Counted from the stretch's first letter, positions 24,227-30,177 are shown. The stretch: DNA of 64,000 bases from an uncultured Aquiluna sp. (GCA_913775595.1 CAJYLB010000001.1:248001-312000); one strand, 5' to 3'. Made by a program: numbers and translations. The notes: generated by a model not told the origin, from the letters alone.

Positions 24227-24240
24227 CTAACATTGTGCGC

Positions 24241-26010
24241 ATGCCTTATCGCCTGAGCACACTCTTTCTTAGGACCCTCCGCGAGGACCCGGCCGATGCC
24301 GAGGTCGATAGCCACAAACTGCTGGTTCGTGCCGGCTACATTCGCAGGGCAGGCCCTGGCATCTGGTCATGGTTGCCGCTTGGGCTCATGGTCAAGAACA
24401 AGATCGAGAAAATCGTTCGCGAGGAGATGGCTGCAGCAGGCAGCCAAGAGGTTCACTTCCCCGGGCTGCTTCCAAAAGAGCCTTACGAGGCAACCGGTCG
24501 CTGGGAGGAGTATGGGGACAACATCTTCAGGCTCAAGGACAGAAAAGATGCTGACTACCTTCTAGCACCAACCCACGAGGAAGTCTTCACTCTCTTGGTG
24601 AAAGACCTATACACCTCTTACAAAGACCTGCCCTTGAGCATTTATCAAATTCAGCTGAAGTATCGCGATGAGGCAAGGCCAAGGGCTGGACTCCTCAGGG
24701 GACGCGAGTTCATAATGAAGGACGCCTACAGCTTCGATGTCTCCGACGAGGGTCTCGATGTCAGCTATCAGGCACAGCGCGATGCCTACGAGCGCATCTT
24801 CAAGCGTCTCGGTCTGGAATACGTCATCGTGAAGGCCGATGCCGGAGCAATGGGAGGCTCGAAGTCTGAGGAGTTTTTGTGCCCAGCGCCAATTGGCGAG
24901 GACACATTCGTCCGCTCCTCGGGAGGCTTCGCTGCGAATGTGGAGGCCGTGAGATTTGAACCGGCAGCCGACATCGATTTTTCGAGGACTCCAGCTGCAG
25001 AGGTTCACGATTCTCCAAAGACTCCGACCATTGCCACTCTGGTTGATTTTTCGAATCAACATCACGCAAAGGCGGATGGCGAGTGGAGTGCGAGCGACAC
25101 TCTAAAGAACGTCGTGCTGGCCCTGGTTTCTCCAGAGGGCAAACGCTCGCTCGTAATTGTTGGGGTTCCTGGAGACCGCGAGGTTGACCAAAAGCGAGCT
25201 GAGGCATGGTTCTCGCCAAACGATGTTGAGCAGGCCACGGAGGAGGACTTTGCCAAGCATCCTGAGCTCGTGAAGGGCTACATAGGACCTACAAAATCAG
25301 GCGCGCAGTTCCTGGGCGAGAAGGCAAAGGCAAAGATTCCCTATTTCTTGGACCCTAGAGTCGCAAAGGGCTCCAGCTGGATAACCGGTGCCAACGAGGA
25401 TGAGAAGCACGTTTGGCATCTGACCTATGGCAGAGACTTCGAAGCCGACGGTATTGCAGACATCGCTGAGGTTGTCGCTGGCGATCCTGCACCCGATGGC
25501 TCGGGTCCGCTTGAGCTCGCAAGGGGAATTGAGATTGGCCACGTCTTCCAGCTCGGGCGCAAGTATGCAGAGGCATTGGACCTAAAGGTCCTAGATGAGA
25601 ACGGCAAGCTTGTCACAGTCACCATGGGCAGCTACGGCATCGGTGTTACGAGACTGGTTGCGGTTATTGCCGAGACGTCTCACGACGAAAAGGGCTTATG
25701 TTGGCCTGAGGCGGTCGCTCCTGCCCAAATCCACATCATCGCGGCGGGTAAGGATGACAGTGTTTTTGAGGCAGCCGAGGCGCTTGCCAGCGAAGCCGAA
25801 GAGATGGGCTTCGATGTCATGCTCGATGATCGTAAGACTTCTCCCGGTGTCAAGTTTGCCGACGCTGAGCTACTGGGGATGCCATGGGTCATCGTTTGCG
25901 GTCGCGGTCTGGAGACTGGCGAGGTGGAACTTTGGGACAGGGCGTCGGGCGAGCGCTTGACGGTGAAGCTAGAATCTGCATTAGCGGAGATAACCTCGCG
26001 CAGGAAATAG
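24241..26010 (+). CDS. proS: Proline--tRNA ligase
   Basis: [53 protein letters not shown]; start ATG 24241 (or GTG 24235). Confidence 0.98.
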
Positions 26011-26026
26011 AACAGGTGCAGGCATT

Positions 26027-27007
26027 ATGGATATCGATCTCAGTGTCCTCCGCCTGCTGGAGCGCGAAAAAGAAATCCCCTTTGACGAACTAGTCACCAT
26101 CATCGAGGCAGCGATTCTTGCTGCCTACTTCAAGCACATCGGAGAGCACCCGAAGGGTTGCCGCGCTCACCTGGATAGAAAGACCGGTCACGTCTCAGTT
26201 TTTGCCGCGGTGCTGGACGAGGATGGCGAGCCAACCGAGACCGAGAACGAGGTAACTCCGGAGGGCTTTGGTCGAGTTGCGGCCTACGCTGCAAAGCAAG
26301 TGATCGCTCAGCGTATGCGTGAGATTGCGGATGAGGGTCTGCTTGGTGAATTCAAAGGCAAAGAGGGTGACATAGTCGCAGGTCAGATTCAGCAGGGCTC
26401 CAGGCCTTACATGGTCTATGTGAACCTAGGTTCTGTGGAGGCAATAATGCCGCCGGAGGAGCAGGTACCGGGTGAGGACTACTCCCACGGCAGGCGAATC
26501 CGGGTCTACGTGACAAGTGTCCAAAAGGGTCTTCGCGGACCGATGATTACCGTCTCCCGCACCCACCCGAACCTTGTTCGCAAACTATTTGCGCTTGAGG
26601 TTCCCGAGGTTGCTTCGGGTCAGGTGGAGATCACCTCGGTTGCCCGCGAGGCTGGCCACCGAACCAAAATCTCAGTGCGTTCAAATGAGCCAGGCATAAA
26701 TGCCAAGGGTGCATGCATCGGTGAACTGGGTCAGCGAGTCAGGGCCGTGAGCAGTGAGCTCAACGAGGAAAAGATCGATGTTGTTGATCACTCGGAGAAT
26801 TTGGCTGAGTTTGTCGCTCACGCGCTTTCTCCAGCCAAGGTCTCTTCGAGCTTTGTGATTGATGCGGGGCTCAAGGCAGTGAGGGTTTTGGTTCCGGACT
26901 TCCAGCTCTCGCTTGCGATAGGCAAGGAGGGACAAAATGCCCGCCTGGCCGCAAAGCTTACGGGTGCAAAGATTGATATCCAACCCGATAGCACGATGGA
27001 TGAATAG
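26027..27007 (+). CDS. nusA: Transcription termination/antitermination factor NusA
   Basis: S1 and KH domains: FGRVAA, AREAGHRTKI, GACIG, SLAIGKEGQNARLAAKLTG. Confidence 0.98.
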   Translation: MDIDLSVLRLLEREKEIPFDELVTIIEAAILAAYFKHIGEHPKGCRAHLDRKTGHVSVFAAVLDEDGEPTETENEVTPEGFGRVAAYAAKQVIAQRMREIADEGLLGEFKGKEGDIVAGQIQQGSRPYMVYVNLGSVEAIMPPEEQVPGEDYSHGRRIRVYVTSVQKGLRGPMITVSRTHPNLVRKLFALEVPEVASGQVEITSVAREAGHRTKISVRSNEPGINAKGACIGELGQRVRAVSSELNEEKIDVVDHSENLAEFVAHALSPAKVSSSFVIDAGLKAVRVLVPDFQLSLAIGKEGQNARLAAKLTGAKIDIQPDSTMDE

Positions 27008-27027
27008 CCAGTAGGCACAATTCCCAA

Positions 27028-27190
27028 TAGAATGGGCGCAGTCCAAAGCTCTGCAGCCATGCTGCGGAGACTTTCTAAGAACTTAGAAGCAGGCAGAAGA
27101 TGTGTGAAACCAAATGAGCATTCAGAAATGAGACCCGCTCAGCTATAAGGCCTGCCCTGTTTGGGGTTGGCCCCAGACAGGAGAAATTCA
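27028..27190 (+). promoter_or_regulatory. infB leader: -10 box TAGAAT, 5' hairpin, palindrome, three chained micro-ORFs and an SD-sequestering hairpin
   Basis: TAGAAT 27028-27033; stem 27049-27069; TTCTAAG-AA-CTTAGAA 27073-27088; uORFs 27100-27117, 27114-27131, 27128-27148; stem 27156-27181 overlapping AGGAG 27179-27183. Confidence 0.7.
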
Positions 27191-29752
27191 GTGGCGCTTC
27201 CACGCGTATACGACTTAGCAAAAGAACTTGGTATTGATACCAAGGTCGCTCTCGCAAAGCTTGAAGAGCTTGGCGAGTATGTAAAGGGTGGTTCCTCAAC
27301 CATCGCCCCACCGGTTGCCGCCAAGCTTCGCGCAGCTTTTCCAAAGAAGGAAAAGCCAGCCGAGAAGCCAAAGGCAGAGAAACCAAAGGCGGAGGCGAAG
27401 CCAGCAGCCGAGGTAAAGCAAGCAGAGGCAGAAAAGCCTGCTGAAAAGCCAGCGGAGAAGCCAGCGGAGAAGCCAACTCCGCTGCAGGGTATTCCGCGTC
27501 CAGGTAATAACCCCTTCTCATCGAACCAGGGCATGGGCATCCCAAGGCCAATGGCGAGACCGGGTAATAACCCCTTCTCCTCGAACCAGGGTATGGGGAG
27601 GCCGAGGCCACAAGGTGCTCCGGGACAGGGACAACGGCCAGGAGGCCCAAGACCGCAACAAGGCGGCGCTCCGCGTCCAGCCGGCGGTGGCAGGCCCGGT
27701 GGCGGCGGTAGACCAGGTGGCTTTGGCGGACCGGGGGGAGGCCCTGGAGGTCCTGGTGGCAGGCCAGGAGCATTCCCGGGTAGGCCAGGCCCAGGCGGCC
27801 GTGGCGGCCGTGGCGCAGGCACGGCAGGAGCTTTTGGTAAGGGCGGCTCAAAGAGCAAGTCGAGAAAGTCAAAGCGGACAAAGCGCGAGGAGTTTGAGCA
27901 GAGAGAGGCTCCGAGCCTAGGCGGCGCAATGGTGCCACGCGGCGACGGTACGACCGTTGTACGCATTCGTAGGGGAGCATCGATTCAGGACTTTGCAGAC
28001 AAGATTGGCGCCAACTCCGGCCAGCTAATTACCGTCCTGTTCCACCTTGGACAGATGGCGACCGCAACTGCTTCATTGGACGAAGACACCTTCCAGATCC
28101 TTGGTGAGGAGCTTGGTTATAAGGTCGAGCTGGTCTCGCCAGAGGATGAGGAGCGAGAGCTCTACGAAGGCTTCGGGTTGAGCATTTCAACCGACATCGA
28201 GGAAGAGGACTCGGAGAATCTGAGCCCAAGGCCACCGGTGGTCACCGTGATGGGTCACGTCGACCACGGTAAGACGAGAGTCCTGGATGCTATCCGTAAC
28301 TCAAACGTCGTCGAGGGCGAGGCTGGCGGCATTACCCAGCACATTGGTGCCTACCAGGTGCACGCAATGCACGAGGGTGTTGACCGCGCGATTACCTTTA
28401 TCGATACCCCTGGTCACGAAGCCTTCACCGCAATGCGTGCCCGCGGTACGCAGGTGACCGATATTGCGATTCTCGTGGTTGCAGCCGATGACGGTGTTAT
28501 GCCTCAGACCATCGAGGCGCTAAACCACGCCCAGGCTGCTCAGGTCCCCATCGTGGTTGCCATCAACAAAATTGACAAGGAAGGTGCAAACCCGAACAAG
28601 GTGCGCCAGCAGCTAACTGAGTTTGGGCTCGTTGCCGAGGAGTTTGGTGGCGATGTGATGTTCGTCGAGGTCTCTGCTTTGAAGAACATGGGTATGGACA
28701 AGCTGCTCGATGCGGTGCTTCTGACTGCAGATGCAGCCCTCGACCTTCGCGCGAACCCTGATCGCTCTGCAAGGGGAGTGGCTATTGAAGCCAACCTGGA
28801 CAAGGGAAGAGGTTCGGTTGCAACCGTGCTCATTCAGTCCGGAACCTTGGCAGTCGGAGATGCAATTGTTGCCGGAAGTGCTCACGGACGAGTGCGTGCG
28901 ATGTTTGACGAGAACGGAAAGCCCGTGGAGGCGGCAGAGCCATCCAGACCGGTTCAGGTTTTGGGTTTGCAATCTGTGCCAAGAGCCGGTGACACCTTTG
29001 TGGTGGCCGATGACGAGCGTCAGGCCAGACAAATTGCTGAAAAGCGCGAGGCTGCTGACCGTAATGCACTGCTTGCCAGGACCCGCAAGAAGCTCTCGCT
29101 CGAGGACTTCACAAAGGCTCTCGAGGATGGCAAGGTCGAGTCCCTCAACCTCATCATCAAGGGTGATGTCTCCGGTGCTGTTGAAGCGCTTGAGGACAGC
29201 CTGCTGAAGATTGAGGTAGATGACTCTGTCCAGCTGCGCATCATCCACCGAGGCGTTGGTGCCATTACCGAGTCCGATGTCAACTTGGCTACGGTCGACT
29301 CCGCGGTCATCATTGGGTTCAATGTTCGCCCGGATAACAAGGCCAAGGAGCGTGCGGATCGCGAGGGTGTCGATGTTCGTCACTACACCGTCATCTACAA
29401 CGCTCTCGAGGACATCGAGAACTCCCTCAAGGGCATGCTCAAGCCTGAGTACGAAGAGAAGCAGATGGGTACGGCAGAGGTCCGCGAGATCTTCAAGTCC
29501 TCCAAGTTCGGCACCATTGCAGGTTCCTACGTCCGCTCGGGCCTTATCAAGCGAAATGCGCTTGCCAGGGTGCTTCGCGATGGCGAGATGATCGAGGAAG
29601 GCCTGAAGGTCGAGTCCCTGAAGCGGTTCAAAGATGACGTCACCGAGGTGAAGAGCGATTATGAGTGTGGTATCGGTCTAGGCGAGTTCAAAGACATCCA
29701 GGTTGACGACGTCATCGAGACCTACGAGATGGTTGAGAAGCCGAGGGTCTAG
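27191..29752 (+). CDS. infB: Translation initiation factor IF-2
   Basis: [11 protein letters not shown]-terminus at GTG 27191 after [25 protein letters not shown]-domain motifs; ECGIG C-terminus. Confidence 0.99.
27500..27598 (+). repeat. Two 60-bp-period copies encoding [13 protein letters not shown] in the IF2 low-complexity linker
   Basis: ccaggtaataaccccttctcatcgaaccagggcatgggc (27500) versus ccgggtaataaccccttctcctcgaaccagggtatgggg (27560); preceded by EKPA repeats. Confidence 0.9.
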
Positions 29753-30177
29753 TGGCAGATGCAGCAAGAGCTAGGAGGCTCGGCGAGCGCATAAAGGTGC
29801 TCGCCGCGCAAGCCCTTGCCAAAGTTGTCAAAGACCCCGACCTGGGATTTGTAACCTTCACTGATTGCAGGGTGACACCAGATTTGGCTCATGCCAAGCT
29901 CTTCTACACCGTCTATGGCTCTCCCGAGGAGGTGGAGCGCAGTGCGGAAATCCTGGAGGAGAATCGCGGCAGGCTTCGAGGGGAGATTGGTCACCAGCTA
30001 GGTATTCGGGTGACACCGACCCTAGAGCTTGAGAAGGACGAGATTCCTGAGAACGCTGGTCAACTTGCCGAGCTACTCGCAGAGGCAAAGCGCCGTGACG
30101 AGGAGCTCGAGAGGCTCGCCAGCAAGGCTAAGCCGGCGGGAGACGCAGACCCCTACCGCAAGCCCCAGGAGGACTAG
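29752..30177 (+). CDS. rbfA: Ribosome-binding factor A
   Basis: VKDPDLGFVTFTDCRVTPDLAHAKLFY, IRVTPTL; follows infB. Confidence 0.95.
   Translation: MADAARARRLGERIKVLAAQALAKVVKDPDLGFVTFTDCRVTPDLAHAKLFYTVYGSPEEVERSAEILEENRGRLRGEIGHQLGIRVTPTLELEKDEIPENAGQLAELLAEAKRRDEELERLASKAKPAGDADPYRKPQED

Follow-up and report, generated by a model that had tools for sequence, protein, structure and literature searches.

What is the role of three chained micro-ORFs and a hairpin lying immediately upstream of infB, the gene for initiation factor IF2, in an uncultured Aquiluna sp.? The question is raised by a stretch of 64,000 nucleotides (GCA_913775595.1 CAJYLB010000001.1:248001-312000), referred to here as the window, in which each of the small frames overlaps the next through its stop codon. 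The chain and the hairpin look like a so far undescribed means of controlling IF2 synthesis. More specifically, we give about an even chance to the proposal that this leader is the Aquiluna version of a cis-acting infB leader kept across the class Actinomycetes, in which a relay of terminating ribosomes would set infB initiation.

The features of the locus are collected in Table 1. A preliminary description of the same DNA had given the coordinates and codons of the three micro-ORFs exactly to the base. It was equally right about the 14-nt distance between successive starts, the AAATGAG sequence at both junctions, the position of uORF3 in the frame of infB (27191-27128 = 63), the 11-bp stem located 7 nt past the TAA with AGG of the infB Shine-Dalgarno (SD) sequence in its 3' arm, and the weak SD-like motif upstream of uORF1. 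The duplex energy of this motif with the anti-SD is -5.3 kcal/mol, compared with -7.4 for the infB SD.

Table 1. Features of the nusA-infB region in the window (positions counted from its first letter).
Feature	Position	Strand	Basis or remark
nusA	26027..27007	+	Pfam KH_5 and NusA_N; ORF table
infB leader, conserved element	27082..27190	+	genus alignment and covariance model R1
weak SD-like AGCAGG 5' of uORF1	27088..27093	+	sequence
uORF1, ATG TGT GAA ACC AAA TGA (MCETK, stop TGA)	27100..27117	+	sequence
uORF2, ATG AGC ATT CAG AAA TGA (MSIQK, stop TGA)	27114..27131	+	ATGA overlap with uORF1 stop; no SD
uORF3, ATG AGA CCC GCT CAG CTA TAA (MRPAQL, stop TAA)	27128..27148	+	ATGA overlap with uORF2 stop; no SD
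spacer GGCCTGC	27149..27155	+	site of helix A 5' strand in relatives (read from alignments)
hairpin B, CCTGTTTGGGG-TTGG-CCCCAGACAGG	27156..27181	+	11 bp (one G-U), loop TTGG
infB Shine-Dalgarno AGGAG	27179..27183	+	sequence
infB (IF2, 853 aa, GTG start 27191)	27191..29752	+	Pfam IF2_N, GTP_EFTU, IF-2

Downstream of infB lie rbfA and then truB (Pfam RBFA, TruB_N), and the infB/rbfA junction is a TAGTG overlap (29750-29754). Neither RimP_N (PF02576) nor YlxR (PF04296) was found anywhere in the single-contig Aquiluna genome of 1.245 Mb. Thus, the usual rimP-nusA-ylxR-infB operon has shrunk to nusA-infB in this genome, and the leader stands directly 3' of nusA because ylxR is missing. The nusA-infB spacer folds more stably than its shuffles (z = -2.32), with 2 of 200 shuffled sequences being as stable. 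Some minor features of the region were also recorded. The upstream half of the spacer (27008-27088), alignable in the closest relatives only (loci L001-L003), carries two more hairpins (around 27049-27069 and 27075-27088), and a promoter-like TAGCCA-17-TAGAAT (9/12 matches) is located at 27005-27033. A prolyl-tRNA-synthetase-like gene occupies 24235-26010, with the nusA start 17 nt past its stop. The genes downstream of infB are likewise joined by one-base stop/start overlaps, base 30177 being common to the rbfA stop and the truB start according to the ORF coordinates.

One window alone cannot settle whether such a chain is a product of chance; conservation does. A strict parser (ATG starts, up to 8 codons, junctions NTGA or TRATG) returned three chains of at least three micro-ORFs from the two strands of the 1,245,344-base genome, the infB leader among them; of the other two, one is embedded in long open frames. 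The last one, a 25-nt oddity with the sequence ATGTGATGTTCCACCCATGAGCTAA (G000:C1:321919-321943, minus strand, outside the window), links three micro-ORFs of 1, 4, and 2 codons and is the only other three-membered chain of the genome that is not surrounded by a long open frame. A lenient parser was defined by ATG, GTG, or TTG starts, up to 12 codons, strictly overlapping junctions, and a distance of up to 230 nt from infB. Its background amounted to 253 chains in 2.49 Mb of the Aquiluna genome (0.021 per 210 nt) and to 4 chains in 163,362 nt of family loci (0.005 per 210 nt).

Regions upstream of infB were sampled blind to the motif, with the N-terminal 54 residues of IF2 serving as anchor. 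The nearest relatives are Aquiluna sp., and the family is Microbacteriaceae, including Rhodoluna, Agromyces, Microbacterium, and Leifsonia. Anchor matches were obtained in 150 of 151 genomes of the family, 120 of 121 of the order, 109 of 111 of the class (107 of 109 when the unpublished genomes G320 and G329 are excluded), and 42 of 71 of the phylum; no locus was sampled from unpublished genomes. A chain of at least three micro-ORFs was detected by the lenient parser in 124 of the 137 anchor-sampled infB loci, 36-50 nt upstream of the gene: 26/30 in the genus, 25/27 in the family, 35/40 in other families of the order, and 38/40 in other orders of the class. Of the remaining loci, ten show two linked frames and three a single frame. 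The 137 loci include near-identical leaders, and 115 non-redundant chains were retained. No chain of at least three was found in the 20 control loci, which represent 14 families from other classes of the phylum. Within the genus, the leader region was matched in 51 of 61 relatives by DNA search, and positions 27082-27260 align at 79-100% identity in all 30 loci.

A covariance model (R1) built from 83 leaders has a match in 119 of the 121 genomes of the class (117 of 119 if G320 and G329 are excluded), about 40 of the genomes searched having contributed to the model. Each genome contains one strong match, with a weak second match in five only (E 1e-4 to 8e-3), and in 24 rows compared by eye the match adjoins the IF2 N-terminus. 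In the Aquiluna genome (G000) it spans 275082-275196, which corresponds to 27082-27196 of the window. The micro-ORF chain is conserved and specific to infB across the class Actinomycetes, and it is not a product of chance. Similar start/stop junctions upstream of infB in other Actinobacteria, which the preliminary description had mentioned, do exist, and chain and downstream hairpin are kept across the class while the peptide sequences vary.

The pattern of conservation was analyzed codon by codon. In an alignment of 83 sequences from the class, the invariant columns comprise TGA and an A at the junctions, a single G within the SD, and TG of the infB start codon, and the rest of ATGAG and ATG3 are nearly invariant. 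Among the 115 non-redundant chains, ATG is the start of uORF1, uORF2, and uORF3 in 107, 109, and 113, respectively, the others being GTG and, once, TTG; at the uORF1 site, an ATG or GTG is kept in all 115. The first frame typically has 3-5 sense codons across the class, uORF2 has five in 102/115 chains, and uORF3 has six in 77/115 and five in 30/115. Its stop is TAA in 70 chains, TAG in 25, and TGA in 20. The first junction is ATGA (90), TAATG (11), TGATG (8), GTGA (5), or TTGA (1), and the second is ATGA (112), GTGA (2), or TAATG (1). From ATG3, an in-frame stop occurs within 8 codons in 114/115 chains, a count that is partly circular because the parser demands a stop, versus 3/115 and 6/115 in the other two frames. 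These are signs that start and stop function is kept while the sequence drifts, as expected if the codons themselves were under selection.

The distribution of SD motifs (GGAG, GAGG, or AGGA, 4-17 nt upstream of a start) is strongly asymmetric: 15 of the 115 chains have one upstream of uORF1, two upstream of uORF2, one upstream of uORF3, and all 115 upstream of infB. Since uORF2 and uORF3 lack an SD, they would be readable only by re-initiation, which supports the earlier proposal that a ribosome has to re-initiate to arrive at uORF3.

Conservation extends to letters flanking the start and stop codons (CGAUGAGC; AAAUGAG here) beyond what a relay alone would require, and this leads to a different explanation, in which the (C/A)(G/A)AUGAG repeats would be binding or cleavage sites for a protein or an RNase and the start/stop pattern a mere by-product. 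The presence of CGATGAGC in most of the class and of AAATGAG twice in the window fits this idea, as does the retention of uORF1 even where it lies out of frame inside ylxR. We nevertheless consider it improbable: the last stop drifts among TAA, TAG, and TGA yet stays a stop, the starts drift to GTG or TTG only, and junction types are swapped while the overlap is kept. Moreover, no helix within the chain is supported. A candidate helix P1 enclosing the chain (CAGGC 27090-27094 with GCCTG 27151-27155), seen in the minimum-energy fold of the window and accompanied by one compensatory change (locus L021), was rejected, its complementarity across 114 leaders being shuffle-like (z = -0.09) and equal to that of an upstream control. 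Rfam gave no match in the window leader at E up to 10 and none in 20 related loci at E up to 1, and YlxR cannot be a required ligand here because it is absent from the genome.

The relationship between the chain and ylxR is variable. Among same-genus loci, 20 of 30 have spacers of 350-357 nt with an ORF of 81-95 residues, one of which matches Pfam YlxR, and the other 10, including the window, have spacers of 153-183 nt without such an ORF; the chain is kept in these 10 loci. Over the wider set, the ylxR stop was placed through the frame of the RxCxxCR motif, which was possible in 95 of 122 loci and not in 27; placement by the longest open frame was dropped as unreliable in high-GC DNA. The ylxR stop overlaps ATG1 in 20 of the 95 loci, is the uORF1 stop in 18 and the uORF2 stop in 15, falls elsewhere within the chain in 5, and lies upstream of ATG1 by up to 12 nt in 6 and by more than 12 nt in 31. 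Hence, ylxR has uORF1 or uORF2 as its in-frame tail in 33/95 loci, and in the 15 loci where ylxR ends at the uORF2 stop, ATG1 is located out of frame inside ylxR. The chain usually continues ylxR, in no fixed register, and survives the loss of this gene. Its initial description as a leader holds for the window, where it is free of ylxR; in most relatives, it is the continuation of ylxR.

These data bear on an alternative, a plain ylxR-to-infB coupling over some 90 nt kept non-coding for RNA structure, which would fix a protein ratio and sense nothing. The stop positions that overlap ATG1 (20/95) or coincide with the uORF1 or uORF2 stop (33/95) are in line with it, and infB and rbfA overlap here too (TAGTG). 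In addition, the accessible part of a preprint by D'Halluin et al. describes overlapping stop/start junctions (NUGA, URRUG) as common in actinobacterial operons, M. tuberculosis included, and reads them as termination-reinitiation. However, the chain is kept without ylxR and also where ylxR ends more than 12 nt upstream (31/95), infB has its own strong SD in 115/115 chains, three steps are kept where one would suffice, and the two covarying, mutually exclusive helices beside the last stop described below point to a switch. Coupling of this kind thus seems unlikely to be the whole function of the leader.

Published data on M. tuberculosis concern the region where the chain begins. There, ATGAGCACACCGTGA (MSTP, 3147962-3147948) is listed as a putative leaderless ORF, that is, with a mapped transcript start on its ATG; a ylxR isoform ends in ...ACATGA across this same ATG, and ylxR itself (start 3148318) is also a putative leaderless ORF (Smith et al. 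2022, PMC9094748). That both ylxR and the first micro-ORF are listed in this way implies two transcript starts feeding the infB leader of this species. The same 15 letters of ATGAGCACACCGTGA head the chain in loci L110 and L137, and on these grounds their family (f53) was taken as probably mycobacterial. The Ribo-RET table of the same study (Smith et al. 2022, PMC9094748) contains no initiation peak for M. tuberculosis coordinates 3147900-3147999, a stretch 5' of the annotated infB start that includes the uORF1 row; as the start of infB itself is likewise missed in this table, its sensitivity there is low.

Between the chain and infB, a hairpin more stable than shuffled sequences was found in every group (mean z -2.0 to -3.9). 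In the window this is hairpin B, with an energy of -19.1 kcal/mol when folded alone and A27179-G27181 of the SD in its 3' arm. In the alignment of genus and family, 91.2% of the cells of helix B are paired and 35 cells show double changes, compared with 17.2 in shuffles; its score was reached by 0/500 shuffles, and slid controls gave at most 59%. The SD is paired with a mean probability of 0.69 for the genus (n=18), 0.61 for the family (n=22), 0.35 for the order (n=35), and 0.07 for the remainder of the class (n=38). Thus, of the SD-sequestering hairpin proposed from the window, the helix finds support from covariation in genus and family, and the sequestration of the SD turns out to be a speciality of the family, with a value of 0.07 in other orders.

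Outside the family, a different structure is conserved. Helix A (GGTCCG...CGGACC) is paired in 95.0% of cells, with 22 double-change cells against 7.2 expected from shuffles, and its covariation was reached by 0/500 shuffles. For genus and family, including the window, helix A is not claimed (72.7% of cells paired, matched by 42/500 shuffles); in the window, pairing is possible only for GGCC 27149-27152 with GGCC 27169-27172. Complementarity also exists between the 3' strand of helix A and positions +9 to +16 of infB (AAGGTCCGGG, codons 3-6), giving a putative helix C. Mean duplex energies in the class were -12.1 for codons 3-6, -6.9 for the next 25 nt, and -7.4 for a shuffled strand, codons 3-6 being better in 30/37 loci; the corresponding values in the order were -9.9, -5.4, and -6.5 (29/35 loci). 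Duplex energies gave no signal of this complementarity in family or genus. Helix C is paired in 85.9% of cells, its covariation score was reached by 0/500 shuffles, and the third base of an Arg codon is compensated in the leader (CG 29, GC 10). As helices A and C use one common strand (a'), they are mutually exclusive. Alternative helices of the attenuator type, both covarying, are therefore present as A and C in class and order, and for the window good support is limited to helix B, the occluding one. Judged from sequence covariation, the class-wide structure is probably a switch between helix A and helix C, which a lineage-specific SD hairpin appears to replace in Aquiluna.

As an observation on the same part of infB, the stretch that begins with TG of the start codon and ends with codon 5 (TGGCGCTTCCACGC, window 27191-27211) is identical in 28/28 same-genus sequences, synonymous sites included, in a context of coding DNA that is about 73-83% identical. 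This identity suggests a nucleotide-level constraint in the genus Aquiluna too.

The position of helix A relative to the chain is well defined. The uORF3 stop lies 4 nt (35/65) or 1 nt (19/65) 5' of it, a spacing that would put its 5' strand inside the leading edge of a ribosome with the stop codon in the A site. Being GC-rich and beginning 1-4 nt past the last stop, helix A could also be viewed as a pause or terminator hairpin that micro-ORF translation prevents from acting, following the model of pyrBI-type attenuation, or translation of the micro-ORFs could bar Rho, an option favored by the C-rich chains of many high-GC members. The accessible part of the preprint by D'Halluin et al. ties translated uORFs to conditional termination in M. 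tuberculosis. Such control at the level of transcription appears very improbable here. The window hairpin is followed by no T-run, a promoter/terminator scan found no terminator-like site on the plus strand, the Aquiluna chain is A-rich rather than C-rich, and the covariation involving infB codons 3-6 makes the ribosome-binding site (RBS), not RNA polymerase, the likelier target. A metatranscriptome contig, which does not prove a single transcript, spans 26600-27546, from nusA into infB. This contig comes from a set of 21 listed runs, 19 of them recorded as RNA; four were examined, all stored as contigs. The contigs of the four runs break at differing points within the leader, and two runs from a single study show increased depth on a short contig covering 27136-27214, possibly a stretch common to several strains.

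The effect of a ribosome on the structured infB RBS was modeled by keeping nucleotides from -12 to +15 relative to the P site single-stranded and computing the cost of opening the RBS (-13 to +16); these energies describe equilibrium folding with a fixed footprint, not kinetics. With the ribosome at the uORF3 stop, the mean change was +3.9 kcal/mol in the class (above +0.5 in 30/38 loci), +4.9 kcal/mol in the order (32/35), and +2.8 kcal/mol in the family (22/25). In the genus it was -2.1 kcal/mol, with 3/24 loci above +0.5 and 21/24 below -0.5. A ribosome placed at the uORF1 stop, the uORF2 stop, or ATG3 changed the modeled cost by only -1.1 to +0.7 kcal/mol. The predicted sign of the effect thus differs, being repression in most of the class and slight opening in Aquiluna.

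For the window, the modeled opening cost drops from 16.2 to 13.1 kcal/mol with the ribosome at the uORF3 stop. The unpaired probabilities of A27179, G27180, and G27181 are 0, 0, and 0.01 in the free RNA; a ribosome whose edge is at +15 increases them to 0.14, 0.36, and 0.25, and one with its edge at +13 produces no change. A terminating ribosome would free at most two base pairs, the rest of hairpin B still amounting to -13.2 kcal/mol. The idea that a ribosome on uORF3 touches the hairpin was correct insofar as the footprint at the uORF3 stop reaches its foot.

Taken together, the observations are compatible with the following course of events for the proposed terminating relay. Ribosomes would enter the chain from ylxR or, where this gene is missing as in the window, from the weak start of uORF1. 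The SD-less uORF2 and uORF3 would then be read by the ribosome that has just terminated on the preceding frame, and the last stop would park it at a fixed distance from the structured infB RBS. In most of the class, its leading edge would cover the 5' strand of helix A, and the 3' strand so freed could pair with infB codons 3-6 and close the RBS, resulting in repression. In Aquiluna, helix A would be vestigial, the 11-bp hairpin would hold AGG of the SD, and the ribosome would reach its two basal pairs, resulting in slight opening. In both cases, ribosome flux along the chain would set the frequency of infB initiation. We infer that the micro-ORFs are translated and that their translation affects IF2 synthesis.

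Among known systems, the closest relatives of the chain are the termination-reinitiation overlaps of operons (NUGA, URRUG), with which the leader shares the junction types and the SD-less downstream frame. It differs from them in chaining three steps through frames of 3-6 codons, hardly able to encode functional proteins, and in ending about 40 nt before infB rather than overlapping it. In erm and cat attenuators, a ribosome selects between two helices by its position within a short leader ORF, and one of these helices occludes the downstream RBS. The infB leader resembles these attenuators in its two alternative helices, one predicted to occlude the RBS. However, no sign of a stalling peptide or inducer and no known stall motif were seen in the leader, in which the ribosome would be a terminating one, the chained frames have no SD, and one strand of the switch lies inside the infB coding sequence.

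Another analogy is found in eukaryotic-type control by GCN4/ATF4 leaders, where ribosomes re-initiate on a series of very short uORFs and the availability of the factor delivering initiator tRNA determines the outcome. The infB leader may be likened to them in having several very short uORFs before the gene, and differs in using bacterial ribosomes, in overlapping rather than spaced uORFs, and in an RNA-structure read-out. Some translation factor genes are self-regulated, such as infC, with an AUU start read by IF3, and prfB, with a frameshift at UGA read by RF2; by analogy, the infB leader would be a cis feature whose decoding could depend on the encoded factor. We know of no feedback loop for IF2 synthesis, unlike the cases of IF3 and RF2.

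It is plausible that the relay serves as a read-out of initiation efficiency, that is, as IF2 feedback. Such an IF2-reporting relay is attractive because SD-less re-initiation needs IF2 and fMet-tRNA, and because IF1 and IF2 are said, following work by Karimi et al. in 1998, to clear short peptidyl-tRNAs from the P site. A further reason is the enhancement of leaderless translation by IF1 and IF2, as stated in the accessible part of a review. In its most ambitious form, the leader would be a bacterial counterpart of GCN4-type control and the missing IF2 feedback loop, operating through the A/C switch and rewired around the SD hairpin in Aquiluna, a possibility that we put forward tentatively and regard as rather doubtful. 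IF2 and fMet-tRNA would re-arm the ribosome three times, making flux a steep function of initiation capacity, and a ribosome at the uORF3 stop would flip the A/C switch and close the infB RBS. If this were true, high IF2 activity would lower IF2 synthesis and low activity would raise it.

No description of the micro-ORF chain or of the A/C switch was found in the literature searched, subscription journals and bioRxiv supplements lying outside the search. The accessible part of one report describes a rimP-leader attenuator in the same operon (rimP-nusA-infB), a terminator with a U stretch located 5' of rimP (Naville and Gautheret 2010, PMC2965389). As far as that part of the report goes, both leaders have a conserved GC-rich hairpin, and the infB leader differs in its position directly 5' of infB, the absence of a U stretch, and the presence of micro-ORFs.

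IF2 is essential, and a single-copy element is kept before its gene through the whole class, which includes genomes that are presumably Streptomyces-like and Mycobacterium-like. By coupling a fixed re-initiation geometry to a covarying, putative RNA switch that reaches into the infB coding sequence, the leader turns the control of IF2 levels in actinobacteria into simple mutational tests and would offer a natural model for repeated termination-reinitiation. For annotation, the element explains the conserved ylxR-infB spacer, and the covariance model marks the true infB start.

Several lineages depart from the common arrangement. Family f6 (L065, L084, and L085) has one or two linked frames only, and in f9 (L067, L068, and L089) the chain is found about 116 nt upstream and is followed by an insertion. 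For L119 (f27), the model is matched by the hairpin and SD part only, and L123 (f32) is another lineage-specific departure, listed alongside f6, f9, and f27.
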